From Eledone cirrhosa (lineage: Eukaryota): a stretch of DNA of 64,000 nt. The translations under genes and the position numbers were made by a program. The stretch lies in contig OZ024743.1 in assembly GCA_964016885.1 (NCBI GenBank), forward strand, positions 286,006,001 through 286,070,000. The letters are read 5' to 3'. A model generated the notes under the pieces. That model was not told the origin of the DNA, searched no databases, and worked only from the letters and a program-made list of their open reading frames with translations. Below are positions 4,347-62,271 of this stretch, one piece after another. Each line of letters starts with the position of its first letter. The first letter of the stretch is position 1.

Positions 4347-5092
4347 GAAAGTCTGCCACTCTCTATGAAACAGCAAATCCTGATTGGGCTCCAACACTTC
4401 GGCTCGGCCGTGATCGTGCAAAAGATTTCCAAGCTGGTTCAGTCCGAGGTAAAACAAAACGCAAACGGAAATTGGATTCTAGTTCAGATGATACACTGTT
4501 TGCTCTGTCTGTTTGCAATTCAGAGTTGCAACAAAGGTGCCAATCTCTTACAAATGTTGGACCTGAATCCTACCGAAAAGCAGTTCATAAGTTTCTTGAA
4601 ACAAAAGAAGTTATGGATTTATTAATGCTTCCAGATGAAGTTTTTTCAACTCAACCTCCTTGTGAGCCAATTCGAGGAGAAATTTACCTTATGAAAATAG
4701 ATTCATCTCAAGAATCCAGTGACTGGACTAAAGATGGCTACAGTTGGTTAAATTTAGGATCAAATGACTTAATCCTGAATCAGAGCCCTGCTCTGCGTCA
4801 AAGTACATTTCGAATGTTGGTAAACAATGAGATTGAAACATGTCTACTGAAACATGTTTATCGGTCTTTCAACAATAATCAAAAAGTTGTCATTCATTAT
4901 GTCACTGATGAAAGACTCAGTAATAGTAAGTCTTATCCACATGCTATGTATATCACTGGACCTTTATCAGCTTCACAGACCCATTTAGGAATCACTCAGT
5001 ACTACCAGCAGCTAGTAGAAGATTGTAATGTTGACAGTCAAAAACCATCTGAAGCTCTCTGGGAGTTGGCCCCCACCAGCAAAGAAAAATCT
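4347..5092 (+). CDS. Internal coding exon: C-terminal end of a THAP domain followed by a CG-1-like DNA-binding domain (upstream exons not found in the window)
   Basis: Acceptor tttcacAG at 4345-46 (phase 1) and donor GTAAGT at 5093 (phase 0), with an open frame throughout. It starts (G)KSATLYETANPDWAPTLRLG, an invertebrate THAP C-terminal motif, then KTKRKRK (NLS-like). It continues PPCEPIRGEIYL...DWTKDGYSW...KHVYR...VVIHY, which resembles the CG-1/CAMTA signature (KDGxxW...RxYw...LVHY). Confidence 0.75.
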
Positions 5093-17070: not shown

Positions 17071-17858
17071 TACCGTATATGCCGGCGTACAAGTCGAGCC
17101 GGCGCATTAGTCGACCCCCCTAAAATTCTGAGGTGTAATTCAGGTTTAGGCCTATATATGCCGGATTGGACGACTCCCAAAAAGTAAGGCAGTACCATCT
17201 CCCCAGCCAATCTTTATTTACACAAAATATAAAGCATGGAAATAAACACTAAATAGTTGTAAAATGTAGTTTGTGTAAACCATTGATATTATATGGTAAC
17301 TCCTCCTGGGAAATACCGGTAGATTTAACAAACATGAGTTCCAATAGAAAATAAATGTGGTTGGCTCTGAAAATTACGGTAAGTGGTGTAAATCGAATAT
17401 TAAGGTACATCAACTGATGTGAATGGCAAGTTTACATGGCGATACATTTTTATTTTCGGCCAGTTTTGTTTCGTGGTTAAATTACCGTAGTTTTTTCGAT
17501 AGTTTAGACAATTCTAAAACACTTCAGTCGCAAGTGAGCTCTAACTCACTGAGTAAACCAGCCTAGCCTTACCTTAACGAACCTATGGAACCTACCCTAT
17601 GAGCTACGGCAAGTCATTGATATTATTATAATCTCTACGTTAAATAGACTTAACAAATATGAGATTCAGTAGGAAATAAATGTGGAGGGCTGCTAGAGTT
17701 ATGGTAAGTGGTATACAACGAGTGTTAGGCAGGCAGTTTCACTGTTTACCCCTCAATGGTAAAGGTTCACATTTTATATTCGGCGGATAAGTCGAGCCTT
17801 GGTTTTGGAGAGTTATTTTTAGGCTCCAAATGTCGACTTGTACACCGGCATATACGGT
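17071..17858. mobile_element. pogo/Tigger-like non-autonomous DNA transposon (MITE)
   Basis: TIRs taccgtatatgccggcgtacaagtcga / tcgacttgtacaccggcatatacggt. Internal diverged duplication (17280-17460 vs 17615-17790). Confidence 0.8.
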
Positions 17859-17868: not shown

Positions 17869-18182
17869 CAGGGGTGTGCAACATATTCCATTGGCGGGCC
17901 ACTTTTGAACAATGGAACAACTATTAGGGCCATTAATATTTATTAAGCACTATTTCAAAGATTCACCACAACTTCTTTCCATAACATGGTACTGGTAAAT
18001 TATAACATATATAACCCTATCAGTGAACCCCTTTAGTATAGGTCAATTAACAGAAAATTATATTACGGTTACGAACAAAATTCTAGATAAGTTTATAAGG
18101 TAAAAATTAAAAACGGTCATCGCGGGTCACCCTGGTCTGGCGGCCGGATTGTGGCCCACGGGCCACCTGTTGCACGTCCCTG
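17869..18182. mobile_element. hAT (Charlie-like) MITE with perfect 8-bp TSD
   Basis: TIRs CAGGGGTGTGCAACA / TGTTGCACGTCCCTG, flanked by TTCTAAAA at 17861-17868 and 18183-18190. Confidence 0.9.
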
Positions 18183-18456
18183 TTCTAAAACTACTATCTA
18201 AGACATGAGATTTGTTGTGACAGCTGTTAACAGAAGAGTTCTAATCCCGAACTGCAACCGGATACATAAAGAGTATCGTAAAGAACACCAGCAGTCGTTT
18301 TACACACGCGGAAGAATACAATGTTTATGTCAACTGGCTTTCCGTGTGTACTTCACATGTACTATTAACAGACATGTTTTGTTGTGATGCTCTCTTTTTG
18401 AGAAGTACCCCATAAATTTCATTGTTTTTTTTTATTTTACGTTGTTATCTATAAAT

Positions 18457-18999
18457 ATGCAAAAGCAAAGTATCAAGGTTTACAAAGCATCTTCTGGTAA
18501 TAAAATTGCGAGTGGTGAATGTAAAAGAAAAGCTATAACTCTTGAAGAAAAGCTAGATGTTATACAGCGTTTTGAACGTAATGAAAGAACATGTGAAATT
18601 GTTCGTGCAACCGGAATAAAGGAGTCTACTTTACGCACCATTAGAGACAATGCTGAAAAGATTAAAGCCAGCTACATTGCTGGAACAAGCCTTAGTGCTT
18701 GCAAATCAGTGAGATCGCGACCAAGGGAACTTGAGAAGATGGAGCGGCTTCTATGTATGTGGCTAGAAGATCAAACGGAAAAGCTATCAGGAACTAGCTT
18801 TCTTGCTATAAAAGAGAAAGCTTTATCAATTTATGAAGACCTGAAGAAGAAAGCTGAAAATCCGGCAATCGTACCCGCCTTTAGTGCTAGTAGTGGCTGG
18901 TTTGTTGGTTTTAAGAATCGTTATACTTTTTATAATGTAAAGTTTTGTAGTGAATCTAATAATGCAGACGATGAACGGGCTTTAACATTTCACTCCAAG
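18457..18999 (+). CDS. BTB gene A exon 1: CENP-B/Tigger-type DNA-binding region (HTH_psq plus HTH_Tnp_Tc5), transposase-derived, no DDE domain
   Basis: ATG at 18457; KRKAITLEEKLDVI...GIKESTLRTI, then MERLLCMWLEDQ...IKEKALSIY...FSASSGWFVGFKNRY. Donor AAG|GTAGAG at 19000 (phase 0). Confidence 0.85.
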
Positions 19000-19466
19000 G
19001 TAGAGTAGCACTTTCTTTCATTATGAGATGTAAATTAAACATTTTTCATAAGCCATATTATACTTTCATTTTTACGCAAGACCGATATTACATTCAGACA
19101 TACAAGTCTTGTTTTATAAATCAAATTTCACTGCCATAGATGCGTATGTTTTTGATATTGTTAATATATATATATATATATGGGTTTGTTACGAAATTTT
19201 ATTTCTAGCAGATTGATAGCACTTGAAATATTTCGACAAGTTTTCCAGCATTGTGTATTTCTCTTTATTTTTTCCGATTCTTACCTCGATTATGCGGATG
19301 TGTGAGTGTAATAGACGTTTTCTTTTATGTGAATTATCTAGACACACCACATCGTAAAACAAAGAGAAATAACTCATGCTGGAAAAGTTGTCAAAAAATT
19401 AAGGGGCGCGTGAAGATAATTCCTTAGATTGATATCGAAAGTAAAGTAACGTTTTTTTCTTTTTAG

Positions 19467-19903
19467 CCTCTAACACACCAACAGCGTTCCTCTTTGGCTA
19501 TATCTGACTTGACACAGCCGACAGAGTTCAATGCATCTGACCAGTTGAAAGTTAATTCTAACAACGATATACAAAAGACTACCAAACCCTCCAATATGAA
19601 TGATGTGCATCTTTCTAGTCGTTCCATTATTGATCTTGAACAAACAGGGAGATCTTTTGGGGCGAAACCTCGCATGAAACGGTTACCAAAATTAAAACGG
19701 CAATTTAGATCCGGAGCTAAAGATTTATCACTAAACAGAGCGAATTTATCTCAGAGACCATCCAATCATATTAGATCTCACCAGCGGTGGCTGAAAGAGT
19801 CAACAGGTCGCTCTGTTGGAGAGCAGCACTTTGACTTAGTTTTAAATAAAAACTCCGTAGAATACAATTCAAAAGCACCGAAAAGTAACAGCAATTCCAT
19901 ATC
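19467..19903 (+). CDS. BTB gene A exon 2 (basic, Ser/Asn-rich linker)
   Basis: Acceptor ttttttctttttAG (phase 0), open frame PLTHQQRSSLAISD...NSNSI, donor TC|GTAAGT (phase 2). Confidence 0.75.
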
Positions 19904-20102
19904 GTAAGTATCTTAAATACATTCCTGTCCTTTTAATGCTGATTTGCAAAAGAAATCTACTTTTCATTTTATTTGTATACCATGATAATAAATTGAAGTA
20001 TTGTTTTTCATAATCTTAATGTGTAAAATTTCAATTTTAATGCATTTAGTATTTTATATTTGAAAATATTCTGATTTCTTTAACAATTCATTTTATTTAA
20101 AG

Positions 20103-20283
20103 ACATTCTCTGTCTGATGAAATAATAGTTCTTCCACAATCAACCATACCCTCTGTTCAGAAGGAGAAACGTACTCTAGTGGTTCCAAATCACCAAGTGG
20201 CAGTGATGTCCAACCTATTTTCCATGTGGAAAGTTGGGCGTTTGTGTGATTCATATATTAGTAATGGTACCACAAATATAATG
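20103..20283 (+). CDS. BTB gene A exon 3 (N-terminal part of BTB domain)
   Basis: Phase-2 acceptor tttaaAG; HSLSDEII...VPNHQVAVMSNLFSMWKVGRLCDSYISNGTTNIM; donor GTATGT. Homologous to 48011-48188 and 60224-60401. Confidence 0.88.
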
Positions 20284-21290
20284 GTATGTATGTTATGATT
20301 ATTTATGCCTTTTACCCAATATAAAATATGAATAAGTCATTAATATCATAAAATGTATATTTTATTTATTCAGAAGGCATTTTTTTATATATGAGATTAT
20401 AGCAATGCAAATTAAACGTTAAATCTAAAAATAATAAAGGTATTGAAATGTTACTTTAGAAGTGTTTAATTAGTTGTATATATTTTTATTAATATATCCC
20501 CTTTTTCAATGGTGTTAAGAGAACGTCAGAGTGATGGGGTTATTGTGCATCCCTTATGTTGATATTCCAAATTATGAGGAGGAATTAAAGGGCCATGTGA
20601 TGGAGTAATTTGAGGCTTTTATTTGTGTTCACAGGCCGTCAGTGAGAAGTGACATGTAAAGGAATTGGATCAGGTATAATGATGTGACGCACCAATTCTG
20701 GGGTATTTTACAGGAAAAATATCTTAAGCAATAATTCAATATCTTTGTTAGTGTTATTTTTTTAAATTAATGTTCTATTTGTATTACTATAGCCTTCTAT
20801 ATATTAAAAAAATGTTGTCTACATATTCCTTAATGCTTCAAGCAAGCTACAACACTCTTCTATTATTTACTCAATTATATTGGTGCAATAAAATGAGTTG
20901 TTGTAAATTTGTCAATATGTCAATACTCTGAATGTAAAAAGAATTGAGTCAGTGTAATAATTATATGTTGACTGAAAGATCAGCAGTTCATATCCTGCCC
21001 ACTGCTTCTTAACTTTCAATATGGCACAATTAAGCTATGTGTTATCTGGGGATATAATCTCTATCATAGGCAAGAGAGGCTATTGCATAATTGATAAATT
21101 TTTTGTTAGCAAAACCAGCAGAAGCATTCCTATAAAACGAGAGAAATATCTTTTGGGCATATCAAAGCTAAATTATGTTGCTGCATACTTCACCTTTTAC
21201 ATGGGATGTTACTCAGCAAGATAACATACACAACTATTTATTTTGAAAAATCCAACTGAAATTAGATATAGTCAATAATCATCAGCAACC

Positions 21291-21480
21291 TACGAGGGTT
21301 GGTTGAAAAGTTCATACGAAGGAGTGATGCTAGAGCTGTGAAATCTTGTGTGCATTAATTTCAGTTCTTATTAATAACTGCATTGTTTCTTTCCAGGGAA
21401 TCTGTTGAAAAATAAACCTCACTTGGTCATTCCATGAGAGTAGCTTGGTCAACCTATGGATATTTCAGTTGACCCTCGTA
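21291..21480. mobile_element. mariner-type MITE in intron 3 of gene A
   Basis: TIRs tacgagggttggttgaaaagttcata / tatggatatttcagttgaccctcgta. A related inverted copy lies at ~27190-27385. Confidence 0.75.
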
Positions 21481-21628
21481 GTAAAACATAGACTCCATAT
21501 GTTCTTCACCTAGCCCATATTTTGATAGAATCTAGTGATATGTCAGTAATCAATAATCTTAACAAACATATGTTCAATATATAAAGTGTATTTTGCCATA
21601 TTTATCCCAGATATATTTTATATTTCAG

Positions 21629-22681
21629 GTTCATAAAATGGTTTTGGGAGCTGTATGTCCAAAAGTACTGCCCATCCTTTATAACACCTCAAGCAGTTTA
21701 TTTCCTAAAGTGACATTTCCATCATCAGTCAGTAAAGAAGCTCTATTAGCATTTGCAGAGTACATGTACAGTGGTGTGTTAGATCTGAATGAAGATATTC
21801 TTGTCCAACTGAAGACTATTGGTGAAAGATTAGATATGAAAGATTTTGAAGAACTTTGTAGTAATGAAATAAACAAAGCCAAGGCAAAAGATATTTTGTC
21901 AGCTGTGGTGGAACCGTTGTTGGCAGAACCTTGTTCTTTATCAGGACTGTTCTCTCCCAGAACACAAGGAGATTCTAATGAGGTTCAAAACTCAATGTTA
22001 ATGAAAATACTTGGAAATATTTACAGCAATAATAACATGCAATCTGATGTTGGTGTTAATATTGCATCAACATCCAGTCCATCTTCTTCTGATGTAAGGT
22101 CTACAGAAAATATGACTACAGATCAGATTGTTGATATCAAAACTGAAATGGAACCAGAGATAGAGCCTACAACAAATCAGAACTCTCTACAGTTAAAAAT
22201 AGAACCATGTAGTCCCAATGAAAATCAATATAATATCCAAGAAGAATTATTCATGGATATTGGTAACATTACTTCCAATAATAATCTTCATCTCACACCT
22301 GCTTCTGGAAATCTCAATAAAGACAATGATTTAACAGTTACTTATTCAAATAATCAGTATAGAAATGATATAAATATGGATTCCAGTGATATCATCAATA
22401 TATCCGATATCCATCGATCTGAAGTGACTTGTTTATCACAACATACAGAAGACTGTGATAAAGAGACAGAAAATCAGAAAGAATTACAGTTAATTTCAGT
22501 AACATCTGCAACAGGCAATATAAGTGAAGACAGTCTCAGCAATAATTCTGATTTGATAGAGATCTCCAGTACCATGTGCACAAATACAGACCCACTTCAA
22601 ACATCAAATTCTAGACCATACCCTGTTAGCCTTTTTTCTGTGAATGGCAGTAAAATTCCAACAACATTACCAGATAGTTGA
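21629..22681 (+). CDS. BTB gene A exon 4 (rest of BTB/POZ domain plus acidic/Ser/Asn-rich tail, stop TGA)
   Basis: Acceptor tatttcAG; VHKMVLGAVCP...VSKEALLAFAEYMYSGVLDLNEDILVQLKTIGERLDMKDFEELC is the BTB core. 1053-nt open frame. Confidence 0.9.
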   Translation, partial: VHKMVLGAVCPKVLPILYNTSSSLFPKVTFPSSVSKEALLAFAEYMYSGVLDLNEDILVQLKTIGERLDMKDFEELCSNEINKAKAKDILSAVVEPLLAEPCSLSGLFSPRTQGDSNEVQNSMLMKILGNIYSNNNMQSDVGVNIASTSSPSSSDVRSTENMTTDQIVDIKTEMEPEIEPTTNQNSLQLKIEPCSPNENQYNIQEELFMDIGNITSNNNLHLTPASGNLNKDNDLTVTYSNNQYRNDINMDSSDIINISDIHRSEVTCLSQHTEDCDKETENQKELQLISVTSATGNISEDSLSNNSDLIEISSTMCTNTDPLQTSNSRPYPVSLFSVNGSKIPTTLPDS

Positions 22682-43409: not shown

Positions 43410-43842
43410 ATGGGGAGGTTCAAGAAGTACCGTAATGAAATAGAAAGGCAAGCAGCCAGAAAACAACGTGAACGAGAAAGACGTGCTACTGAAACAAATG
43501 AAGAAAGAGAAGAAAGATTGAGAAAGCTGTCTATAAATGCACAAAAAAGAAGAGCTGAGGAATCAACAGAAGAAAGAAAACAGAGGCTTAGAAGATTGTC
43601 TCAGAATGAATTGAAGAGAAGGGCTAAAGAAACAAATGAAGAAAGAGATGAAAGACTTAAGAAACTCTCTCAATATGCAAAGAACAGGCGTGCTGCAGGG
43701 CCAAACAATCATAATACTCAACTAGGTAAAAAAATGGATCGAGGCCAGAATCAAAATGCTAATGGTTACATTAAAGTCAACCTTTTAAAGTATTATGATG
43801 TCCATGAAGACCATCATCAGGAGCAGATGCAACACAATCCTG
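43410..43842 (+). CDS. BTB gene B exon 1: STPR-like 23-aa repeat DNA-binding domain
   Basis: ATG at 43410; three exact 23-aa repeats ETNEEREERLRKLSINAQKRRAE / ESTEERKQRLRRLSQNELKRRAK / ETNEERDERLKKLSQYAKNRRAA (43491-43697). Donor CCTG|GTATCT (phase 1). Confidence 0.8.
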
Positions 43843-44395
43843 GTATCTGTTCCTCTGAACTTTTAATTCATTAGGGTGATAATATCTAGTTTAATTTCTA
43901 TACAATACTTAATTGCCTTTCTCACCTTCTTAACTGATGTAAATATTCTGTAAAACTAGCAGCTATCAATTGTGCGCAGATTATTTGAAACTCTCTCTTT
44001 AAACTTATTTCAATATTTTATATTATTATTCTACATAGTGGTTTGCAACAAATAAAATACCTTGTTGTTTTCTGAGTGTTATTCTCAAGTAATCCCCATG
44101 AGTGCTTTTAGCAGTGTCCATTCTGTTGCAAGCATTCGAGTTAGGTCTCCAGATTGAGGATACCTCCCATTAAAATTGGAAGTACCAGAAAATGCCCTTC
44201 CTAAGCAATTTAAAAAATGTTTTTCAAAACCCAAACTGCTCTAGTATGTGTTCCTACTTGAGAAATAGATCAGATATTAACTAAATTATTTTGAAATCTC
44301 GACAGTACACTAATGTATCTGTTATTTTTTTTTCTATCCAAACTGTTTTAAATAATTCTAATGAAGATTAATTAGATTTGCTTATTTTCTCTTAG

Positions 44396-44537
44396 GAAAC
44401 AAATTAAGTCACTTAAAGAGAACATCAAAATGGAAAAGGAATGTCTCTAAAACATTACAGATAGAAGAGATAATCCCAGGCACAAACTCTAGACAGAAGA
44501 ATTCAAGACTATCACAAACCAGAAGTAGATTAACATC
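44396..44537 (+). CDS. BTB gene B exon 2 (basic linker)
   Basis: Acceptor ttttctcttAG (phase 1), open frame GNKLSHLKRTSKWKR...NSRLSQTRSRLT, donor TC|GTAAGT (phase 2). Joins exons 1 and 3 in frame. Confidence 0.72.
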
Positions 44538-45422
44538 GTAAGTGTTACTCTAATTTCTTTTATATAGGTGTCTTGATAAAAGGCATCTAGTACACTCTGT
44601 AAATTGGCATTTTAAAGGGCATCCAGTTACAGGAACTATGCAAAAATGGAATGTATCATGCTCTGATTAAGTACTGATTGGTTTGTAACAACCCACCTAA
44701 CCCATGCCAGCATAGAAAACCAGACATAAAATGGTGATGATAATTGTGTTTTCTGTAGCTCTGATTAATTCTGCATTGGAAATTATATCATCTACAAACA
44801 GAAGATCCCGTGGTCATTTATTTCTGAATAACAACTTCAAGGAAAAAAAGATAAATCAGAACTTTAGAAACTCTTAAAGGAATTTTTAATTTTACCAAAA
44901 CCATTATATCAACATGCATGGTCTAAGATGCTCTCATTTGTTGTTTACAACCAGCTTTCTTACTATGCATGAAGCTACAGTGTTTTCAGGCCAATAAATA
45001 CAAGAGTGTATTAGTTAATCTTTACCAAATTCTCTGGCAATTGCTTGAAAAATAGAGCATTGTATTGATACAAAATTAAATTATGTTCTAGACACTTTAA
45101 TTCAACTTTGCATTGGTCTGGCTATATCTTCCACCACCATCATAATTTGTTTCATTAACTTAAGTTCCTTGTAACTTACTTTCTAGCTATCAAGGATAAT
45201 GTCATTTTACACAATCTTAATGAAAAATAGAAGCTAGTATAATATCTACTCTCTCATGCTCACATCATCAACTTCAGTACAGTATATTGCCATTTTTCAT
45301 AGTCTTGTTACCTTGTCTGTAAGCTGAACAATGTCAAATCTGATTTCATTATTTCCTCCAATGTTACATTTTCAAAAGCTGTTTGATTCAGTTTCTTATT
45401 TAGATGGTAAGATGTTATCAAG

Positions 45423-45495
45423 TGTCCCTTACCTCAATGGTTAGAGCACCTAGCCAGTATCTGGGAGGTATAGAGTTCAATTCTTTGTAGTGGCT
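45423..45495 (+). pseudogene. Degenerate tRNA-like sequence or SINE head
   Basis: A-box-like tacctcaatgg and B-box-like gagttcaattc, with stem cctag/ctggg around loop ccagtat. Acceptor stem is poor. Confidence 0.3.
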
Positions 45496-46319
45496 CTTAA
45501 CATATTTTTATCTCAAGGGGTCCTTACCCAATTTTTATAAACTATTTTATAGTAACTGATTGTAATTGCAGTTATTTTCAGCACCTGAGCTTCCTACATC
45601 TTCTTATATATATAGCAGAAGCACCACCCCTTGGGAGATTTTCTACTAGTCAATGTATACAAAATGTGTGAAAATGAAAAATTATACCTTTCATGTATGG
45701 ATCATACAACCTCATACTGACGTATTTAATTTTGCAGTTTATGTAATGATGAGGTTGTGAAGACCAACTTTATAAAATTAAGCCTCACAACAGAGATGAC
45801 AAAGGGTTGTAAGGGCTCGTGAAGACATGGTCAACAGCATACAATGTGACCTGATTTATCCCCATGTCCCCCCTTCCGCAAACACTCCCTATCCTTACCA
45901 TCACTACACACCCCTACACCATCCATGCCCCCTCCAGTATCCACTCCTTAGCTGCTGCTCCCACTAAAGCTCTTAGATACCCTTACACACACACCCTAGT
46001 AGATACTCTCTCCACTGCTATGCACTTCACCCATGCCCCCTCCACTATCTATCACTCCTTAGCTATTCTCTCCATCACTTCACTTCTCCTTCCTGGCACA
46101 GACGAATACCATCCCCCACTCTGCACTATCCCCCCCCCACACACACACACACACACAATGACTATATCTGCTTCAGTGTTCTCATCACCACATCCCCTCT
46201 CCTTTATGCTGTTAAAAGACTCCTCCTTCACCACAGCCAAATCACACCATACTTGCCATAACGTAATACTTATCTTCTATCACTCCCACCCACCCCACTC
46301 ACCATAGAACAGAGAGGCT

Positions 46320-47110
46320 CTTTTGTTGGGACCATACCAACAACCTCTCAAGCATTGGTACCATGAAAATGCACCTGGTACACCCTGTAAGGTGGTTGGC
46401 AACAGGAAGGGCACCCTGCTGTAAAAATCATGCCTAAAAAGGTTGAGAGGACCCTTCAGTAATGTTATGCCACAGCATCTCTAGTGTTAGTGATTTATAC
46501 AGTAAACACTCTCAGTATACACTGTAGAGGGGTTGGTGATATGAAGGGTATCGAACTATAGAAAGCTTGCCAAACAAAGGGTTGTGAAGACCCTTCAGTT
46601 ATGTCAAGGACATGACAGCTTCCCTAGTGTTCATGATCTACACAATAAATGCATGCAGTACACACTGTAAAATGGTTGGTAATAGGAAGGGCATTCAGCC
46701 ATAGAAACTTTGTATGCAGCAGATGTACATGGGAGATAAGCACTAAGAACACACAAGAAATAGATTCTCTCAATTGCTTGGGAGTCTCGTTAGAAATCGT
46801 TGACAGCTTTTGTTACCTAGGTGACCTAATCAGAAGACTAAGAGCAGGATGGGAAAATGCCAGGGAACTACTACCTTTGTTGACAACAAAAGGTTTCTCT
46901 GTATGAACAAAAGCATCACTATATGATGCACACTACATTTGTCTCCTCTTATACTCAGTTTCATTCTCAGCTCATCCATTCTTTGCCATATATGCACATT
47001 AACATCACTCATCCATCGAAGCATGCTTGCTTCATTTCTCTCCAGCCTTCACCTTTCTGTGTTTACTGCCCATGTTTCATTTGTATGTAACATTGCATTT
47101 GATACAATTC
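46320..47110. mobile_element. Tail-SINE tandem units and RTE fragments in opposite orientations
   Basis: ORF 46649-46906 ends FVCSRC...EIVDSFCYLGD...RAGWENARELL; minus ORF 46830-47024 MLRWMSDVNV. Confidence 0.65.
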
Positions 47111-47519
47111 ATCATTGTCATCATTTTCACATCTGCTTCTTCATGATAGTATGAGTTGGATGAAGCAGTTTTCTTTGGCTGGATGCTTTTCCTAATACTA
47201 ACTTATAATTATTTTCTTCTTCAAACCGTTATCCTAATTCCAGTCTAATGCATATTGTAGCATCATCACCATTTAACATCCATTTTCCATGGTTACATTG
47301 TTTAAACATGTCACATTATAAGGCTCGACATGTCAGGTGACTACATGTTACATATATTTTAAGTTTGGTTTTCCATGGCTGCTACCCTTCCTAATGCCTA
47401 TCACTTTACAGCGTGTACTGGGAACTTTTTTTTATGCACTAGTATTGTCACCTTACAGAGTAAAAGCTCTTATTAACACCATTGCTTTATCTAAGATTGG
47501 GTCATTATATTAACGGAAG

Positions 47520-47685
47520 AGGGTCGGACGCCATGCTTTGCAACAAAGAGTTACGGCCCTTGCCATTCTGAGTTCAAATCCCGCCGAGGTTAACTTTGCC
47601 TTTCATCCTTACGGTGTCGATAAAATAAAGTACCAGTAATACACTGGGATAATTGCTGGTCTTGTGCCAAAAGTAGAAACAATTA
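47520..47685 (+). mobile_element. tRNA-derived SINE (MetaSINE-like core)
   Basis: gagttcaaatcccgccgaggttaactttgcctttcatccttacggtgtcgataaaataaagtaccagt...ataattgctggtcttgtgccaaaagtagaaacaattat. Confidence 0.8.
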
Positions 47686-48010
47686 TATTAACTTGTGCCA
47701 CCTTCCACCACTGAAACTTGAGTTTGTAGAGCATGAATATTTTTGTCAGTTGGAATGTTTTCCTAAACCACTTAAATATTTTAAGTAAATTATATTGGGA
47801 AAAAACCAAAACAATTGATACCAAATTAGTTAAATTAAAAATTTATTTATTTATGTGTACTCCTAAAGTGAGCTGTAACAAGTTGAATTATTTTAGTCTC
47901 CCTGCAAAAAATGATTCTTATATTACCATATAGATAACCATTGATGTTTTTTTCTATCCTCTTATCTCTATATATCTAATCAATGCATATTTTATATTTT
48001 GGATTTAAAG

Positions 48011-48188
48011 CCATGCCCTGTCTGATGAAATCTCTGTTGTTCCACAATCGACTATACCTGAAGTTCATGAGAAACATATTTTAGTAGTTCCCAATCACCA
48101 AACAGCAGTAATGTCAAATCTGTTTTCTCTTTGGAAGACACGACGCCTGTGTGACTCGTACATTAGTAATGGTACTACGAATGTAATG
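48011..48188 (+). CDS. BTB gene B exon 3 (N-terminal part of BTB domain)
   Basis: Phase-2 acceptor tttaaAG; HALSDEISV...VPNHQTAVMSNLFSLWKTRRLCDSYISNGTTNVM; donor GTATGT. Confidence 0.88.
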
Positions 48189-48229
48189 GTATGTATGTCA
48201 TAATTCTATTATAATTCCATTCACATTTA

Positions 48230-49255
48230 TCATCATCATCATTGTTTAATGTCCATCTTCCACGCTAGTATAAGTAGGATGGGCTGTCCCTTTGTGAGAG
48301 ATCAGGTCGAAGGACTGATCCACTCACACAGAACTGATTTTGGTTTGGTTTCTGCAGCTGGATGCCCTTCCTAATGCTAACCATATTTACAGTATGTGCT
48401 GGGTGCTTTTTGCCATGTCACCTACATGACCACTTTATTACATGGATTGGGTACTTTTTGTTATGACACCTACATGACCACTTTACAGTGTGGACTGGGC
48501 GCTTTGTTGTGACACTTACATGACCTCTATATAGTGTGAGCTGGGCTCTTTTGTTGTGGCTCCAGGGAAAAGGATCACATTATGGAGGGGGTTGGGAAAT
48601 TGGGGGCATAAGTATAGGGGAGGTTTATAGGAGGGGAGATGGTAGGGAATGGTGTTGCCTACTAGGTATATGCCTCAGCCCGAGAATAATACTAGGCAGG
48701 TCTTCTGTAATTCTTCATAGCGCCAGAGGTCATGGCCCTGTGGCATCGAGCAGTGGTGTAATTGAGCAAAGTCAGCTCTTATTACCTCATCCCAAGTCTT
48801 CCTAAGCCTGCCTACTCCATGGCTACCATCAACTTGAGTGCTCAGCACATTTTTATACAGTTGTCATTCTTCATACGCATCACATGTCCATACCAATGCA
48901 ATCTCCTCTCCTGCACACATCTGATCCCTCTTATGCCTAATTTCTTGCACAGTTCATTTATGCTTTGCTGTTTGCAATGTTGCTATTGCACATCCATCGA
49001 AGCATGGAGGCTTCATTTCTTTCCAATCTTTGCAGATCCTCAACAGATAGTGCCCAGGTCTCATTGCTGTGTAACATAGTTGTTCTTATACATGCATCAT
49101 ACAGTTTGCTTTTTATTTTGAGGAAAAAAAAACTTTTGTAGTTAACAGCGGTAGTAGATCCCTGAACTTTCTACAACCTGATCTCACTCTGGCTACTGTA
49201 CTTTTGAAATACCCTTCCCCACCATTGATTTGGTCACCCAGGTAACAGAAGCTAT
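48230..49255 (-). mobile_element. RTE LINE 3' portion plus tail repeat in intron 3 of gene B
   Basis: (CAT)n tail, ~45-bp tandem units, and minus-strand RT C-terminal DNA (ttctgttacctgggtgacc...). Confidence 0.75.
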
Positions 49256-49615
49256 CTTATGATAGTGTAAATTGATATCCAGGACCTAACTGGTACTTTA
49301 TTTTATTGACCATGGAAAGATGAAAGGCAAACTTTACTTCAGCAGGACTTGAACGCAAAACAAAATTGTTTTAACCAATTTTTTTTTTTTTATACTATGT
49401 ATAGTTGTATATTTAAGACATTAATCTCTAACATTTAGTCATGCAGTTATGATTTAAAGGTGTCATAAAGTATTCAGTAACTGTGAAGCAGTCAAGATTA
49501 TATTAAATTTAGTAACAGGCTATTGATGAATGATTTTGCAAAGATATATGTAACATACTATCAAATTGTCCATTTGTCATATTTATTCCAGATGTATTTT
49601 ATCATATGTTTTCAG

Positions 49616-50623
49616 GTTCATAAAATGGTTTTAGGAGCTGTATGTCCAAAGTTATTGCCTGCTCTTCACTACTCATCAAAAGGTTCATTTCCCAAAGTGG
49701 TATTTCCAAGTTCGGTCAGTAGGGAAGGACTTTTAGCATTTATAGAATACATGTACACTGGTGTGTTAGATCTGAATGAAGATATTCTTGTCCAACTGAA
49801 GACTATTGGTGAAAAACTAGAAATGAAAGATTTTGAAGAACTTTGTAGTAAAGAACTGAAGAAAGCTAAGGCTAAAAATATTTTATCAACTGTGGTGGAA
49901 CCTTTGTTGGCAGAACCTTGTTCTTTATCAGGACTGTTCCCTTCCAAAAATCAAGTCGATACTAATGAGATTCAGAATTCTACATTAATGAAGTTACTTA
50001 GAAATATTTGCAATAATACTAGCATACAAACTGATGTTGCTATTAATGTTGCATCAACATCTAGATCCTCTCCGTCTTGTGCTTCTGATGTAAGATCTGC
50101 AGAAAATATGGCTACAAGCCAGATTCTTGATATCAAGACTGAAATGGAACCAGAGACAGAGCCTGCACCAAACCAGAATTCTCTAGAGTTAAATAGTCCT
50201 GAAGAAGAAATGTGCATGGGTATTAACAATGTTCAGTTAAAGCCTGCTGCCACTGATGGAAATATTAATAAAGACAATGGGTTAACAGTTACATATTCAA
50301 ATAACCAGTATAAAAATGATATAAACATGGATTCCAGTGATATGAATGTATCTGATATCAATCAATCTGAAGAGACTTGTTTATCACAGCATACAGAAAA
50401 CTGCGATAAAGAAACAGATAATCAGAAAGAATTACAGTTAATTTCAGTAACATCTGCAACAGGCAATATAAGTGAAGACAGTTTCGGCAATAATTCTGAT
50501 GTAATGGAGATCTCCAGTACCATGTGCACAAATACAGACCCACCTCAAACATCAAATCCTCAACCATTCCCTGTTAGTTTATTTTCTGTGAATGATGATG
50601 AAGATGCAACTCTATTAATATAG
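49616..50623 (+). CDS. BTB gene B exon 4 (BTB/POZ core plus tail, stop TAG)
   Basis: Acceptor gttttcAG; VHKMVLGAVCP...EYMYTGVLDLNEDILVQLKTIGEKLEMKDFEELC. 1008-nt open frame, paralogous to 21629-22681. Confidence 0.9.
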   Translation, partial: VHKMVLGAVCPKLLPALHYSSKGSFPKVVFPSSVSREGLLAFIEYMYTGVLDLNEDILVQLKTIGEKLEMKDFEELCSKELKKAKAKNILSTVVEPLLAEPCSLSGLFPSKNQVDTNEIQNSTLMKLLRNICNNTSIQTDVAINVASTSRSSPSCASDVRSAENMATSQILDIKTEMEPETEPAPNQNSLELNSPEEEMCMGINNVQLKPAATDGNINKDNGLTVTYSNNQYKNDINMDSSDMNVSDINQSEETCLSQHTENCDKETDNQKELQLISVTSATGNISEDSFGNNSDVMEISSTMCTNTDPPQTSNPQPFPVSLFSVNDDEDATLLI

Positions 50624-54864: not shown

Positions 54865-55321
54865 ATGGCAAGGCCAAAAAAATACAAGACTGAAGCAGAA
54901 AGATTAGCAGTCATGCGACAACGTCAAAGAATTAAAAGAGCTAACGAAACACCTTTAGAAAGAGATCGAAGATTGCGGATATTATCTATGAATGAACTGA
55001 AACGACGTCGAAGCGAAACAGCTGAAGAGAGAAATGAGAGACTTAAAAGGTTGTCTGTAAATGCACGTAAGAGACGAGCTAAACAAATGATAAACCAGAG
55101 AAAGGAGAAGCTTAGAAAATTGTCTGGGAGTGAAATGAAAAAACGAGCCAGCGAAACGGATCAGAAAAGAAACGAGCGTGCATCAGAACCAACCTGTCGT
55201 ACTCAACTGGGTATCGGGACAAGAGGCCGAAAGCGGAATTCTAATGGTATTAAAATGGACTTGACTAACTGTTTGGATGACCACAAAAATCATTTCCTGG
55301 AGCGGCTGCAACACGACCCTG
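54865..55321 (+). CDS. BTB gene C exon 1: STPR-like 23-aa repeat DNA-binding domain
   Basis: ATG at 54865; MARPKKYKTEAER then ETPLERDRRLRILSMNELKRRRS / ETAEERNERLKRLSVNARKRRAK / QMINQRKEKLRKLSGSEMKKRAS. Donor CCTG|GTATCT (phase 1) at the same position as in gene B. Confidence 0.8.
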
Positions 55322-56759
55322 GTATCTGTCTCTATGAACTTTTGATTTACGGGTGATAATAACTAGCATACCTAATTTCATTTCCCTCCAACACAGAATA
55401 TTAAGAAATCAATATTTTTTTTTAAATTCTGGTTTAGTTTTGGGGGTTCTAATAATCTAGTTACACTTTTTTTCTTTTACGTATATCACAATATTTTGAT
55501 ATCTTTTCAAACCTGAATTATGTTTGTTTAATTCTCTCATCTCTAGGTGATCTGGGTGAGAGATTTACTATCTATATGTTAATCGTTTCTTTTTCGCCCT
55601 ACACATCAACTTACGATGGAAAAGTTGTCAAAATGCCACATGGATCGTAAAAGTACCAAGTGCTCATAATTGAATTTTGCCAATTTATAATACATTCTAA
55701 TAAATATTCCTAAGATGTACTTCTTTTCTCCAGTCAGCTAATTGATATAAAGTCATTCACAGACACGCACCATCCTCTGTCCCACGGACATGTCCTTTCT
55801 GTTTGCCTCTTCTATTGCTTCAACAACAGCCTCGGTTACACAGTGTCTAGTCTTATATCAGCTCCATTCTGGCACTCCCAACTTATTCCCCTTTCTTTCT
55901 CTCATTGTCAGGGCCTCCAAGGGAAATTTTGCAAGGCGGTACAAGACCCCTTTATGGTCTGAAACAGGCAAAGATTTTTCTGAAAATGGATGTTGCATGG
56001 TTGCTGTGGGGCCTTCTTAGCTCTTGGGCTCCAGAACAAAGAACCGACCGGACCCCACTCTCATAAGCCCTGCATATTGTGTCAACACAAACAACTACAC
56101 CTAATCATTCTTGCCGATATGACAGTCCTCTAGAAATTCCTCTTACAGATGTTGACTTGCAACTATTAAAGTAGGATATCAACGGCACCAATCTCATTGA
56201 TTTTGGAGCACCTACAAGGGCCATGGGCATTTTCCCTTCTCCCAAACCTAAGAAAAATAATATTAATTCTTAGATATTTAAAAAAAATATATTAGTCTTT
56301 TATGTACTGATTCTGTCTGGTGCTCAGTTTAATTCCCTAGTTGCTATTTTTTGTGGGAGGGATCATATTTCAAGGATCCACTGGTGTTTTGGTTGCCCAT
56401 TACCTTTAGTTAGTGTTTGGTTTGCGAGGAAGTCCAAGTAGACCATCTTATCTGCCTGATATTGATTGCACACTAATCATGGATGAAATCACTTTCAGAA
56501 ACATGCACAGCAGCTAATAATAAGTCTTTTAATTAAACATAAGCCAAAATGGTGTGTGTATGTCTGTTTATAAGTTTATTTATCATCAAATTGTAGTTGT
56601 AAAATTACACAATTCCAATAGAAATAATATATATTTGAAAATCTATTTTGACTATGGAATGGAAAAAGCATCCATAGCTGAATTTTGCCACTGTGACATA
56701 GACATTTAAGATAATGTTTATACATATAAGCACGTTTGTGCAACTTAAAAACGTATGTT

Positions 56760-58080
56760 ATCATTATCAAACGCATGTTATCATTATCAAACGTTTTTCC
56801 ATGCTTGTATGAGTTAGGTAGATCTTTTCTAACACAGCTTCCCGCTCCTTCTTGCGATCCTTCATCATCTCTCAACTTCAGCATTCTGAGATTACTTCTC
56901 ACTTCTGCCCACAAGTTTTCCTTTTCTGCAGTCTCTTTCCACTGGGAGCTCTTGAAACTTATTCACTCAATGATTATCAACAATATGTACCATTTGTCCA
57001 TACCAGTACAATCTTTGTACACTGCATTTGATTCCTCTTATACCCAGTTTTTCTCTCAACTCACCTGTGCTTCGTTGTTATTGCACACTAACATTACACA
57101 TCCAACCAAGCATACTAGCTTCATTTCTTTCCAACATTCACACATATTCTGCATTCAATTACCATTTCTCATACCATGCAACATCACACTTTGTATGCAG
57201 GCATCATGTAGTCTACCTTTTGCTAAGAGACAGAATCCCTTTGTTGCTAGCAAAAGTAGTAGCTCCCTGAGCTTTTTCCTCCTCGTTTATATTCTGGCTA
57301 CTATGCTTTTATAACACCCTCCTCAACTGCTAATTTGGTCTCTAGGCATCAGAAGCTATCAACTACTTCTTTAGTTTGGAAACAATTTATTTCACATGTG
57401 CTCTTATAACTAACCACTCCTGTCCATCTGCTACACACAAAATCTCTTTTCGCTGTTAACCTTCCTGTGATCCTACTCCATCTCTTGTACACTTAAAGTT
57501 TACACTAGATGCATTGAATGAAGTCTACCTAATCCTTTTCTGTAAATTGAACATGATTCTGTCTTTTTTCCAACTTAGTAAAACTTTGGTTTTTGCTATG
57601 TTTACCCTGGAACTTCTCTAAATCTTCTGCAGGTTCAACTATTAGTGCCAAATCATCAGCAGTTCTCATGGACAACTTGTCTTAAACTCCTTTGTCATAG
57701 CCTGGAGGACTTTCATAAACAAGAGTGGAATGAGGTCAAAGACTTGATGAACACCCACCTGCACTTTGAATTCTGTGCTAAACACATTGCTTACTCTTTA
57801 CTGATAGCACTTCGGTACATGGCTTGCACTTTTCTCATAAGCTATACATTTTCACCTAGTTTTCCTAAGGACCATCAGTTGACAGATTGTGGTACTCTAT
57901 TAAAACCCTTTTCCAAATCATTGAAAGCTATGTATAGCAGCTTACACTTAACTAGGAACATCTTACTAAGAGGGCATCAGTGCTGCTCCTTTCTGGCACA
58001 AAACCAAACTGCATCTCATCTAATTTGATTCTTTCTCTAATTAGTTGTGCTAAAACACTTTCTGCTACCTTAATAATGTA
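56760..58080 (-). mobile_element. Decayed RTE LINE (RT to 3' end) in intron 1 of gene C
   Basis: Minus-strand 'gagatgcagtttggttttgtgcc' (EMQFGFV) and C-terminal MWAEVRSNLRMLKL. Many disablements. Confidence 0.75.
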
Positions 58081-59270
58081 ATCCATGTATGTTTCATTAT
58101 CTATCTGCTTTTATGTGTGTGTGTGTGTAATTATTTTAGCCATTTCAGTCATTTGACTGCAGGTATGCTGGGGTTCTGCTTTGATTTAGTCAATCATATC
58201 AACACTAATATAGCTTAGTTCTTATCTTAGTGATAACTATTTTTGTTGAACTACTAAGTTACAGACATGGACAGAAACTCATATACACATACAAACACAC
58301 ACACACATATATATAGATGCAGAGGTGGTGAATTGGCAGAGTTGATAGAATGTTTCCTGTATTTTGGTTTCTGAATCAATGTTTGATTCAAATCCCACTG
58401 ATGACCAGGGCTAATCACTTGATCACAGTTGATTATACTGCAGACAACTGATGATAATGATTTATATTATATATATGATAAAGTTATATCTGAAACTGTA
58501 AATATGCCAAATATATGTATTTCCCTGTAAATTGAAAATATGATAAATAACATTAATCAATTTTTAATCTAGTCAGGCTCTCATTAGAAGGTATATATAT
58601 CATCTAAACAATCACAAGGAAATATATAAACGAGTACTTATACACCCACTTAATGTATCCGAAAATGAATGTACTAATTTGCATATTATTAGCATTCATG
58701 CTAATAGTTAATTAAGATATATATTAAGCTGTGCACTAAGCAGCCAAAATATACGATATCTGTGAATATATACAAGAGGTAACTAAGACTACATAAATGT
58801 GTATATTAATTTACACATTTTTAATATATAGATATATAAACACATCAAATATATGTATTTCCTTGTACATTATAAAAATGATCAATACCTTTAATTAATT
58901 TTCTAACTTTGGAATGAAGAATTGGGATAAGTATATGGCTGCAGGGATTTAGTATAGATGGTAATGACATGAGTTAGATTTATGTGGGATTGGTGCAGTT
59001 GTAGAGGAGATATAGAGCCGACACAGTATATTAGCTATTTGGTAGTTGTAGAATGAAGTATTGCGTATGATGATAATGATAAACAAGGTAGATGGTGATG
59101 TGGAACAGCAATAATGATGATATTGATGAATGTTGGACTTAAAAGACACTACCTAGATATCTTTGACACTTAAAAAGAAAAAAAATATACCTTGAAATGG
59201 GAAATATGAACTATACAAATATAGAATTGTTAATATTTTAAAATACTCATTTTTTATTGTTTTCATTCAG

Positions 59271-59523
59271 AAAATTCTTTACTTGGATGTAACTCTCATT
59301 TTATAGAGAAGTTTGAAGTTCTTGTTGAAAAATCGGAACTGAATTCCATCCCATCTTCCCAACTCCATTGTGGTGAAAAAAGAAAATTGAAAAAAGTCTC
59401 TGGAAATTGTGTAAATCAGAAACAGAAAAACAAAACCGGAACACACAGAAACCAATCAACCTCAGTCAACAGTTCTAATGAAGTGAATTCAAGATTATAC
59501 CAAAATAGTACCAATACAGTGTT
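59271..59523 (+). CDS. BTB gene C exon 2 (linker with KRKLKK basic motif)
   Basis: Acceptor ttttcattcAG (phase 1), 253-nt open frame ENSLLGCNSHF...GEKRKLKKVSG...NSRLYQNSTNTV, donor TT|GTGAGT (phase 2). Joins exons 1 and 3 in frame. Confidence 0.72.
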
Positions 59524-59590
59524 GTGAGTGTTTTAAACATTTCTTTTAATACTATCCTTTATTTTGCAAATATAGCTATTTAGTTGGAGT

Positions 59591-59864
59591 CAGAGGCATA
59601 ACTAGGGAAATTAGCGCCTATGGCAAGTAGTGAAATTGCACCTCTGCCCAGCATTGTATATTTACCTATGGGCCTAATAATTTATATAAATGGTTTAATG
59701 ATTCAGCCACCATAGTGTTCTTGCCCATGATAATCAGAGACAGATCATACATCTGAAGAAGTTTCTTTTTTAACTTTAATAGAAAGTGCTCCTAGTCCAA
59801 GTGGTACCCCCTTCATGTGGCAAACATGTCGTGCCATGCTTGCCATACCCTAGTTACACCTCTG
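59591..59864. mobile_element. hAT-like MITE in intron 2 of gene C
   Basis: TIRs cagaggcataactaggg / ccctagttacacctctg; degenerate 8-bp TSD gttggagt / gttgaagc. Confidence 0.7.
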
Positions 59865-60223
59865 GTTGAAGCAGATGTCCATATAGCTGAATGTCCTTCC
59901 TACAGCTAGGCACCCAACCTAGAGGTTCAAGCAAACTACAAATATACAATATTATCTTAGATTTATTAATGTGAGTGTTTGTGTACACTCTAAAATAGTT
60001 AATATTACTACAAACTGTTAATAGCATATTACACCCCAAACCTCAGTATTACATAGAGTATTTCATACATGTAGTAGTTTTACATGTGTATAGTTCTGCA
60101 AGAGACTATCTGATGCCCTTCTATGTAGAAAAAATAAAAGCTAGATTTATTACCCAGCCTGAAGTCTACTCTAATTGCATTGTTGACTAACTATTGATAT
60201 GTTTTATGTTTTTATATTTCAAG

Positions 60224-60401
60224 CCATTCTGTTTCCAGTGAAAGCTTACTTCACCCACAATCAACTGTACCTAATGCTAAGGAGAAACGCATTTTAGTGA
60301 TTCCAAATCACCAAGTGGCAATGATGTCCAATCTATTTTCTATGTGGAAAGCTGAACGTTTGTGTGACTCATACATTAGTAATGGTACTACGAATATATT
60401 G
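60224..60401 (+). CDS. BTB gene C exon 3 (N-terminal part of BTB domain)
   Basis: Phase-2 acceptor tttcaAG; HSVSSES...IPNHQVAMMSNLFSMWKAERLCDSYISNGTTNIL; donor GTATGT. Confidence 0.88.
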
Positions 60402-60489
60402 GTATGTTATAACCTTCATTATGATGTATAATATAGAATCAGTTGACAGCTTCTGTTACCTGAGTAACCAAATTAGTCATGTTAGATGC

Positions 60490-61080
60490 TCATCTTGGAG
60501 TCATGACAAAAGAACCTAGTCCTCTCTGTAAGGTATCATGACAAAAGAGCACTTAGGCCTCCTTGCAGGGTGGTCATGCTGGTGGCATGACAAATAAGCA
60601 CCCAGTTCACCCTGTAAAGTGGTTATGTTGGTGGCATCACAGAAGGTGCCTGATCTGCCCCTTGGAATGGTCATGTTGGTGAAACGACAAATGCACCCAA
60701 CCTAACCTTGGTAACATGACAAAAAGCACTTAGCCCAGTCTTGGTGACATGACAAAAAGCACCCAGTCCACACTGTAAAGTGGTTGTGTTGGTGATATGA
60801 CAAAAAGTATCCTGTCCACATTGTAAAGTTGTTGTTTTGGTGCCACAACAAAAAGTGCCCAGCCCACACTGTAAATTGGTTGTGTCAGTATCATGACAAA
60901 AAGTGCCAACTACACTGTAAAGTGGTCATTTCGATGTCCCAATAAAAGGCATCCAGTAAATGGGGCTGACGTTAGGAAGGGCATCCAACCATAGAACTAA
61001 GCCAGAAACAATTCTGTATGAGAAAGACATGGTCATCTGATCCGACTTGTCTTACAAAGGAATAACTTGTCTAACCCATG
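60490..61080 (+). repeat. Degenerate ~45-bp minisatellite expanded inside an RTE-tail SINE
   Basis: About ten variants of 'catgacaaaaagcacccagtccacactgtaaagtggttgtgttggtg', followed by the 'aggaagggcatcc...ctaacccatg' tail. Confidence 0.8.
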
Positions 61081-61248
61081 TTACAAATATAAATATATAT
61101 AGTTAATTGGGTGAAAGCATATTTAATGTATGTAATAAAGTTAAAGTAAAATTAAATACACTGTGAGAGCAACATACAATCATTATTATTTTTGAACAAT
61201 TATTATTTTTGCCACATTTATTCCAGATGTATTTTATCATGTTTTCAG

Positions 61249-62271
61249 GTTCATAAAATAGTTTTAGGAGCTGTATGTCCAAAATTAATGCCTACACTTC
61301 ATTCATCAAATGATTCATTTCCCAAAGTGGTGCTTCCATCTTCAGTCAGTAAAGATGCTCTATTAGCATTTGCAGAGTACATGTACAGTGGTGTGTTAGA
61401 TCTGAATGAAGATATTCTTGTCCAACTGAAGACTATTGGTGAAAAATTAGATATGAAAGATTTTGAACAACTTTGTATTAATGAATTGAACAAAGCTAGA
61501 GCAAAAAATATTTTGTCAGCTGTGGTGGAACCTTTGTTGGCAGAACCTTGTTCTTTATCAGGATTATTCTCTCCCAGAACACAAGGGGATTCTAATGAGG
61601 TTCAAAACTCAATATTAATGAAAATATTTGGAAATATTTACAGCAATAATAATAACAACAATAATAATAACATGCAAGCAGATGTTGCTGTTAGCATTGC
61701 ATCTAGATCCAGTCCATCTTCTGCTTCTGATGTAAGGTTTGCAGAAAATATGTTTGTGGACCAGATTAACATCAAGACTGAAGTGGAACCAGAAATAGAG
61801 CCCTCTATTCCTGATGAAAATCAAAATTGTATCCAAGAAGAATTATTCTTGGATATTGGTAATATTACTTCCAATAATGACCTTCATCTCACACCTGCTT
61901 CCACTGATGGAAATCTCAATAAAGACAATGATTTAACAGTTACTTCAAATAACCAGTATAGAGATAATATAGAAATGGATTCCTGTGATATCATCAATAT
62001 ATCTAATATCCATCGATCTGAAGAGACTTGTTTATCACAACATACAGAAAACTGTGATAAAGAGACAGAAAATCAGAAAGAATTACAGTTAATTTCAGTA
62101 ACATCTGCAACAGGCAATATAAGTGAAGACAGTCTCAGCAATAATTCTGATGTAATAGAGATCTCCAGTACCATGTGCACAAATACAGACCCACCTCAAA
62201 CATCAAATTCTCTACCATACCCTGTTAGCTTATTTTCAGTGAATGACGGTGGATATACAACTATAGAGTAA
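61249..62271 (+). CDS. BTB gene C exon 4 (BTB/POZ core plus tail, stop TAA)
   Basis: Acceptor gttttcAG; VHKIVLGAVCP...EYMYSGVLDLNEDILVQLKTIGEKLDMKDFEQLC. 1023-nt open frame with a poly-Asn run. Confidence 0.9.
   Translation, partial: VHKIVLGAVCPKLMPTLHSSNDSFPKVVLPSSVSKDALLAFAEYMYSGVLDLNEDILVQLKTIGEKLDMKDFEQLCINELNKARAKNILSAVVEPLLAEPCSLSGLFSPRTQGDSNEVQNSILMKIFGNIYSNNNNNNNNNMQADVAVSIASRSSPSSASDVRFAENMFVDQINIKTEVEPEIEPSIPDENQNCIQEELFLDIGNITSNNDLHLTPASTDGNLNKDNDLTVTSNNQYRDNIEMDSCDIINISNIHRSEETCLSQHTENCDKETENQKELQLISVTSATGNISEDSLSNNSDVIEISSTMCTNTDPPQTSNSLPYPVSLFSVNDGGYTTIE

Follow-up and report, generated by a model that had tools for sequence, protein, structure and literature searches.

What becomes of the DNA-binding region of a transposase when it is left, as a single exon, ahead of a host domain? 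The question is raised by a locus of Eledone cirrhosa on a stretch of 64,000 nucleotides (NCBI GenBank assembly GCA_964016885.1, contig OZ024743.1, positions 286,006,001 to 286,070,000 of the forward strand), which we call the window and whose positions are used below unless another reference is given. A sequence-only reading of the window had proposed that a domesticated Tigger/pogo transposase DNA-binding region is spliced to a BTB domain in a gene, here gene A, extending from 18457 to 22681. Our analysis points to a functional Tigger-BTB fusion isoform that arises from an alternative first exon, a reading to which we assign a probability of about 0.8. Judged from the sequences compared, gene A is best read as one recent, traceable capture in a cephalopod BTB family of swappable transposon-type heads.

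The Tigger-derived exon

Exon 1 opens with the ATG at 18457 and is open to 18999, giving 543 nt and 181 amino acids. It ends in a phase-0 donor (AAG/GTAGAG), and an in-frame stop follows two codons past this donor. The two CENP-B-type helix-turn-helix (HTH) motifs that had been read from the letters as intact are matched in Pfam as CENP-B_N (residues 23-71, E 8.8e-11) and HTH_Tnp_Tc5 (residues 93-157, E 2.4e-7), the DNA-binding region by which Tigger is defined in the available part of PMC7386202. The head is CENP-B-like, and CENP-B (PDB 1hlv) is the best PDB sequence match of the exon (E 1.4e-8); PPR matches in the same search were dismissed as chance. A profile search of the PDB gave nothing at 1e-5. 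The predicted structure of the exon is of low confidence (predicted local distance difference test score, pLDDT, 60; predicted template modelling score, pTM, 0.33), and a fold search with this model ranked CENP-B first, yet without a match at E ≤0.001.

Compared with an autonomous Tigger, the exon has the DNA-binding region and lacks the DDE domain, and neither CAG-type terminal inverted repeats (TIRs) with a TA duplication nor multiple copies were found. A phase-0 donor ahead of a missing DDE domain, with neither a DDE remnant nor a flanking TIR, had been noted from the letters, and the searches agree. When the interval 5093-19466 was searched with the C-terminal portions of six related transposases, no match to a catalytic domain scored below E 0.47, the sole strong match being exon 1 itself. 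No TIR pair was found flanking exon 1, and the best candidate for a Tigger-type TIR in 5093-19466 still had 7 mismatches in 22 positions. In DNA searches of the 3.0-Gb genome, whose copy counts are lower bounds, exon 1 has one match, itself, and its 290-nt upstream flank showed no further copies, again matching only itself.

One open frame with the BTB body

Joined to the exons at 19467-19903, 20103-20283 and 21629-22681, which have AG/GT ends, exon 1 gives a 737-aa HTH-BTB frame without internal stop. The BTB domain is spread over exons 3 and 4, and the transposase domain and the host domain lie on separate exons, as in a host-transposase fusion. The proposed splicing of the HTH region to the BTB domain is supported by the open frame and by a matching junction in the models of two Octopus species. 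The closest homologue is isoform X2 of O. sinensis LOC115209549 (XP_036357331.1, 734 aa), an HTH-HTH-BTB protein, with which isoform X2 of O. bimaculoides LOC106872000 (XP_052822519.1) clusters; both RefSeq models share head, junction and body with E. cirrhosa gene A. RefSeq already lists the Tigger isoform, under an uncharacterised model. The ATG, the open frame and the donor position of exon 1 are preserved in four lineages.

The same acceptor serves a second head. An exon at 4347-5092 is 93% identical to O. vulgaris isoform X1 and 47% identical to a cuttlefish-type protein, and its CG-1 match (E 2e-4) falls under the curated cut-off; a 220-nt THAP exon before the window is identical to the Octopus X1 head in 75/75 residues. 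Together with the body they form an open 878-aa frame, the THAP isoform in E. cirrhosa, and isoform X1 in three Octopus species carries a THAP and CG-1-like head at the same acceptor. The BTB tree places the cuttlefish THAP/CG-1 protein as outgroup to gene A with its STPR paralogues (96/89), and we therefore regard THAP as the older head. Exon 1 is positioned in intron 2 of this THAP/CG-1-like-BTB gene, which argues that it is an alternative start, likely an alternative first exon of the older gene. As expected of a young fusion, the parental isoform coexists with the Tigger isoform, as the 878-aa frame here and as the X1 models elsewhere.

The capture by splicing envisaged in the sequence-only reading thus needs to be recast. 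Domestication and fusion are supported by the same junction in models of two Octopus species, the conserved core and the single copy found. The view that the Tigger exon is simply the gene's exon 1 needs correction, the exon being rather an alternative start within intron 2 of a THAP-BTB gene. Both parental exons, 4347-5092 and the one 15 kb before the window, had been overlooked, as had a hAT-type miniature inverted-repeat transposable element (MITE) at 17869-18182.

Conservation of the HTH core

The HTH core (residues 21-161) is identical to both Octopus proteins at 136/141 positions, the BTB domain at 117/120, exon 2 at 123/146 and the C-terminus at 220-224/267, while the first 20 residues of exon 1 agree at 11-13 positions and the last 20 at 8. 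The core differs significantly from the exon-1 tail (Fisher p 1.4e-9) and from exon 2 (p 5e-4). In a neutral simulation none of 4000 runs held 136/141 identities at ≥0.10 substitutions per site, and 0.1% did so at 0.05. A rough measure of the actual distance comes from the THAP exon, which, compared by eye with the O. bimaculoides cDNA, shows, over 73 codons, 9 synonymous differences and no replacement, i.e. ~0.2 per synonymous site; at about this distance the neutral expectation is ~92/141 identities, with the frame open in 3% of runs. The identity of 136/141 in the core against 8/20 in the tail points to purifying selection on the HTH core, by a protein-level proxy. The counter-case named in the sequence-only reading was a high-copy, neutrally evolving transposon fragment lacking reads spliced into 19467; against its first two terms, one genomic match and this conserved core were found.

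A donor related to shark Tiggers

The nearest relatives found are Tiggers of carpet sharks: the HTH core is 84% identical to those of zebra shark and bamboo shark and 56-63% identical to relatives in Trichuris, marsupials, monotremes and lamprey; the whale shark holds degraded copies of the donor-clade Tigger. A tree of 51 rows groups the four heads of gene A with the shark Tiggers (100/98). Approximately unbiased (AU) tests on a 25-row subset, with groups named post hoc after the first tree, reject a grouping of the gene-A heads with free octopod Tiggers (p 1.7e-54) and with the whole set of other Tigger heads linked to BTB domains (p 2e-96). When the E. cirrhosa genome was searched with a shark transposase, exon 1 alone exceeded 48% identity among 59 matches; with 73 of 1226 candidates scored, no other donor-clade member was found, the next best being 32-48% identical. 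With exon 1 as the query, the other full-length matches reached at most 39% (150 of 311 candidates scored).

The split between molluscs and vertebrates is old. Since shark Tiggers are nearest despite its age, the donor Tigger was likely acquired horizontally. The shark transposases have a Val where the GT of the donor site aligns, and the splice donor may have pre-existed in the ancestral transposon. Tigger transfer is described as frequent in the available part of PMC9219625, which includes intact Tigger copies in Chiloscyllium punctatum; neither these nor the other shark elements in the available parts of that source and of PMC7386202 could be matched to the donor clade. Donor-clade Tigger sequence also lies inside gene models of zebra shark and whale shark (P0006, P0273). 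One shark model of this kind is named TRIAP1 isoform X1 and another clusters with a FATS model; they may be annotation artefacts or separate captures.

Transcript data and points against the fusion

Among sequencing runs, none recorded as RNA was listed as containing the locus. Four sequencing runs were compared with the locus, one of which, X4, is cDNA-like in that it holds a spliced contig, though it is not recorded as RNA. In the three DNA-like runs one 2067-letter contig covers 18147-20213 without differences, and this agreement argues that the layout of the exon 1 locus is not an assembly artefact. In X4 record 27 the intron 19903-20103 is spliced out. X4 also covers the 5' part of exon 1, but not its 3' end, with two short contigs of low depth (18346-18496 and 18486-18672); as an intronic contig has similar depth, this coverage is uninformative either way.

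Several points weigh against the fusion as we read it. The sole spliced contig that enters exon 2, X4 record 27, comes from 775 other letters, which have no placement in 16500-23500. The THAP isoform predicts 746 + 29 = 775 letters before 19467 (with 31-letter words), equal to the length in this record, which suggests that the X4 sample assembled the parental form; going by length alone, record 27 would be that form. The 18999-19467 junction of E. cirrhosa is predicted from the RefSeq X2 models of the two Octopus species, and exon 1 could be internal, behind a non-coding leader. Selection was judged from proteins and a neutral simulation, which serve as a proxy for codon dN/dS. The genome searches scored part of the candidates, in the proportions given above, and horizontal transfer is argued from protein kinship rather than DNA distances. 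Finally, KLHL/KEAP1 folds score close behind ZBTBs for the BTB model, and the nearest solved BTBs by sequence are, weakly, of Kelch type (NS1-BP, E 4.7e-4; gigaxonin).

Alternative readings of the locus

The alternative that survives best, though improbable, is that the fusion acts as a transposon silencer by binding TIRs of its own family or of the neighbouring MITE, as the sequence-only reading had suggested. The transposase domain of this head type binds TIRs, and the head derives from it. The MITE is real: placed earlier at 17071-17858, ~600 bp upstream, it spans 17073-17857 and lies 599 nt upstream of the ATG at 18457, with TA on its left and TT on its right. Its TIR has 21 exact matches in the genome, and 9 of 12 loci retrieved have a second TIR; a transposase match sought in these 12 loci and in the MITE itself was not found. 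However, this TIR matches that of coelacanth PasserC in 22 of 25 letters. In the supplement of PMC7386202, CCGTA ends occur in 16/16 BrkDBD rows shown (of 40) and the Tigger rows shown begin with CAG (16/16); Passer transposases carry a Brinker-type domain according to the available part of the same source. CAG-type TIR pairs were found at 6/35 Tigger loci of the E. cirrhosa genome. Because the MITE has CCGTA/Passer-type ends, whereas Tigger elements end in CAG, it is unlikely to be the binding site of the exon-1 head, and its speculative role as a cognate site is not upheld. For a silencer of its own family, the search with a shark transposase, with 73 of 1226 candidates scored, gave no other donor-clade member. 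Candidate binders of the CCGTA MITE would be Brinker + Tc5 heads rather than exon 1; such a Passer-type head occurs in the BTB family at L070:3494-3976. The second, hAT-like MITE lies between the Passer-type MITE and exon 1, 274 nt upstream of the ATG. We presume its hAT class from the 8-bp length of its target duplication.

Slightly less probable still is that the BTB domain is a Cullin-3 adaptor, so that the isoform would bring ubiquitylation to DNA sites instead of acting as a dimeric transcription factor. The Kelch-type affinities by sequence fit this view, as do the KLHL11 and KEAP1 folds within the top 50. On the other side, Pfam shows neither a BACK nor a Kelch domain, the extra recognised domains in family members are DNA-binding or transposon-type, and the fold matches of the BTB model are led by ZBTB9, BCL6 and PLZF, the top 20 all being ZBTB-type. 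The model comprises an N-terminal strand (353-355) and helix (361-372), i.e. a beta1/alpha1 extension (pLDDT 74-97), and such a strand and helix mark dimerising transcription-factor BTBs according to the available part of PMC11426971. As in ZBTB factors, the BTB domain thus has a modelled N-terminal dimerisation extension; in contrast to them, Pfam finds no C-terminal C2H2 zinc fingers. From its fold class the BTB domain of gene A would form a homodimer.

We give only a slim chance to the view that the domesticated exon acts alone and unspliced as a 183-aa double-HTH protein, a dominant-negative or competitor, to which the BTB fusion is incidental. The frame does end two codons past the donor here, and an unnamed Logan protein (P0130, 184 aa) likewise stops at this position. 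Yet the spliced form is modelled in both RefSeq species, and the donor shares phase 0 with the parental one at 5092 and with donors just after HTH2 in 5/6 other pogo-type heads checked. Least probable of all is that exon 1 is a decaying transposon fragment whose fusion is a rare leaky splice product caught by annotation: the spliced contig, whose upstream letters are not exon 1 and agree in length with the THAP isoform, and the fast drift of both exon ends would fit, but the core is conserved far over the neutral expectation, four lineages retain the ATG, the frame and the position of the donor, and a single genomic copy was found.

A proposed mechanism for the fusion isoform

With the functional fusion isoform as the preferred reading, the following sequence of events is proposed. 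A shark-clade Tigger, probably acquired horizontally, would have inserted before the split of E. cirrhosa and Octopus, and splicing to the phase-0 acceptor already present at 19467 would have used a GT within its open reading frame (ORF), just past HTH2, as the donor. The element would then have lost its DDE part and TIRs by decay, with the head retained by selection. We predict that the Tigger isoform, a double-HTH head on a BTB body, acts as a transcription or chromatin factor with sequence specificity. Its ZBTB-like BTB domain would dimerise and recruit cofactors, such that the choice of head shifts the target sites and the effector body stays constant. Pairing between THAP and Tigger isoforms would also be possible.

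The surrounding BTB family

Between -57 kb and +79 kb from the window start, at least six BTB bodies, that of gene A among them, follow one another in tandem on the same strand; B, C and D carry STPR heads. The Octopus paralogue LOC115209617/LOC106872008 (P0024-P0029) has three heads, STPR and two unrelated Tiggers. A search of the 264 kb surrounding the window did not find these two Tigger heads, and their best matches in the genome are 52-54% identical; they probably represent later captures, or losses. An unrelated pogo-type double-HTH ORF (L007:5020-5652, G000:C4:285961020) lies ahead of an upstream BTB paralogue of the cluster, ~45 kb before the window; a phase-0 donor was sought in it by pattern and none was found.

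At a sister locus, orthologous to LOC106877732/LOC115209932, at least 21 candidate head exons precede a single BTB body; as they were chosen by similarity, this number is a minimum. Matches to THAP (8), CENP-B/Tc5 (4), DUF3504 (3) or Psq (2) at E ≤0.01 were obtained for 17 of the 21, some scoring under curated cut-offs, and the other 4 match none. Thirteen of these candidates match heads of O. bimaculoides or O. vulgaris at 74-100%. A 534-aa C-terminus is common to 24/24 O. bimaculoides isoforms compared (numbered up to X36), and their fronts differ. Within a 400-kb stretch, 24 of 28 query heads were matched, and since all 24 mapped matches of heads and shared segment are on the + strand, cis-splicing suffices at this locus. 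Four split THAP-like heads (L062:9719, L064:1853, L064:3370 and L064:5272) end at C-x-K with a phase-0 donor. The shared exon L065:8190 opens with a His that would complete their zinc site, and an unsplit version of the head is present at L067:6557. More members of the BTB family lie at G000:C4:297.96-298.01 Mb, C10:2.71 Mb, C21:7.75 Mb and C23:6.42 Mb.

The coordinates of all features are collected in Table 1. Elsewhere in the window we noted by eye what we take to be decayed mariner-like remnants (12340-13400 and 16500-16900) and, just downstream of gene A, presumably a broken long interspersed nuclear element (LINE; 23600-26400) with endonuclease and reverse transcriptase fragments.

Table 1. 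Gene A, its alternative heads, neighbouring elements and related loci. Positions refer to the window unless a contig is given.
Feature	Position	Strand	Basis or remark
Tigger-derived, likely alternative first coding exon (exon 1), CENP-B_N + HTH_Tnp_Tc5, phase-0 donor	18457..18999	+	frame, domain matches, orthologues, tree
First constant exon, low-complexity linker, acceptor for both heads	19467..19903	+	AG/GT ends, joined frame
Constant exon, N-terminal BTB part with beta1/alpha1 extension	20103..20283	+	spliced to preceding exon in X4 record 27
Last constant exon, remaining BTB and low-complexity tail, stop 22679-22681	21629..22681	+	domain match, joined frame
First exon of parental isoform, 220 nt, N-part of THAP	G000:C4:285990636-285990855		~15 kb before window
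Exon 2 of parental THAP isoform, THAP end and CG-1-like region, phase-0 donor to 19467	4347..5092	+	homology, open frame
Passer-type (pogo superfamily) MITE, CCGTA-type TIRs	17073..17857	.	93% complementary arms, TIR class
hAT-like MITE	17869..18182	.	8-bp target duplication 17861-17868 and 18183-18190
Tandem paralogue B, STPR head and BTB body	43410..50617	+	homology, domains, BTB tree
Tandem paralogue C, STPR head and BTB body	54865..62265	+	homology, domains, BTB tree
Sister locus (LOC106877732/LOC115209932 orthologue)	G000:C4:234567886-234784808 (L086, L096, L057-L068)		same-strand array

Comparison with known systems

Gene A shares with the tetrapod host-transposase fusions KRABINER, SETMAR and PGBD3-CSB, as presented in the available part of bioRxiv 10.1101/2020.05.07.082677, a transposase exon in an intron of an older gene, likely alternative splicing that keeps the parental transcript, and, judged from proteins, probable constraint on the captured domain. 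In that source the acceptor lies upstream of the transposase ORF in 8/9 traced cases, so that the host domain comes first. In gene A this polarity is reversed: the donor lies inside the ORF, the transposase head comes first and the DDE part is dropped. The host domain here is BTB, a term absent from the main text of the same preprint, and the Tigger head substitutes for another transposon-type head, THAP.

The Drosophila genes lola and mod(mdg4), as covered in the available part of PMC11426971, similarly combine a constant BTB domain with mutually exclusive exons for different DNA-binding domains. There, however, the BTB domain is N-terminal and TTK-type, and the variable exons are 3' and joined by trans-splicing, whereas in gene A the variable heads are 5' and the BTB domain is internal and lacks FxLRWN, its first strand being TLVVPNH. 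Two heads are known at gene A; the sister locus has no fewer than 21 candidates. Given these differences in BTB type and exon order, gene A is not a member of the lola/mod(mdg4) type, although the logic is similar. The insect BTB-Psq factors Pipsqueak and Bric-a-brac, in the same part of PMC11426971, also unite a BTB domain with a pogo-related HTH; gene A differs in its reverse domain order, its presumably independent origin and its recent head with an identifiable donor clade.

The Octopus CENPB-BTB and THAP-BTB proteins described in the available part of PMC10027918 are of the same family and architecture and include the gene A orthologue LOC106872000. There this locus is entered once, as THAP BTB, and the Tigger isoform does not appear under that locus number; the main text does not use the word 'isoform' and regards the BTB domain as the transposon-derived part. 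PMC12062965 treats BTB-integrase fusions, its main text being without octopus. Our literature search, in which subscription journals were largely uncovered, found no paper describing the Tigger isoform or an alternative-first-exon system.

Significance

Evidence that transposase capture gives rise to new transcription factors comes mainly from tetrapods, with KRAB domains and upstream acceptors. Gene A adds the opposite polarity, another host domain, another phylum and a head-for-head swap on one body. As the donor clade is identifiable and has full-length relatives in bamboo sharks, it can be asked whether the captured head has retained the TIR specificity of its ancestor and which octopus genes have come under its control.

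For the family as a whole, the joint proposal that cephalopod BTB genes are a standing sink for transposase heads, with a shark-shared Tigger event and a combinatorial octopod code, is tentative, and we put it somewhat short of an even chance. If it holds, a DNA transposon inserted ahead of a phase-0 acceptor can turn into a new first exon, and gene A would be a datable event whose surviving shark relatives would reveal the ancestral binding site; dozens of heads on dimerising BTB bodies, selected by promoter choice, would constitute a mirror image of lola and mod(mdg4) that evolved independently. Head swapping across the family is a testable route to cephalopod regulatory diversity.

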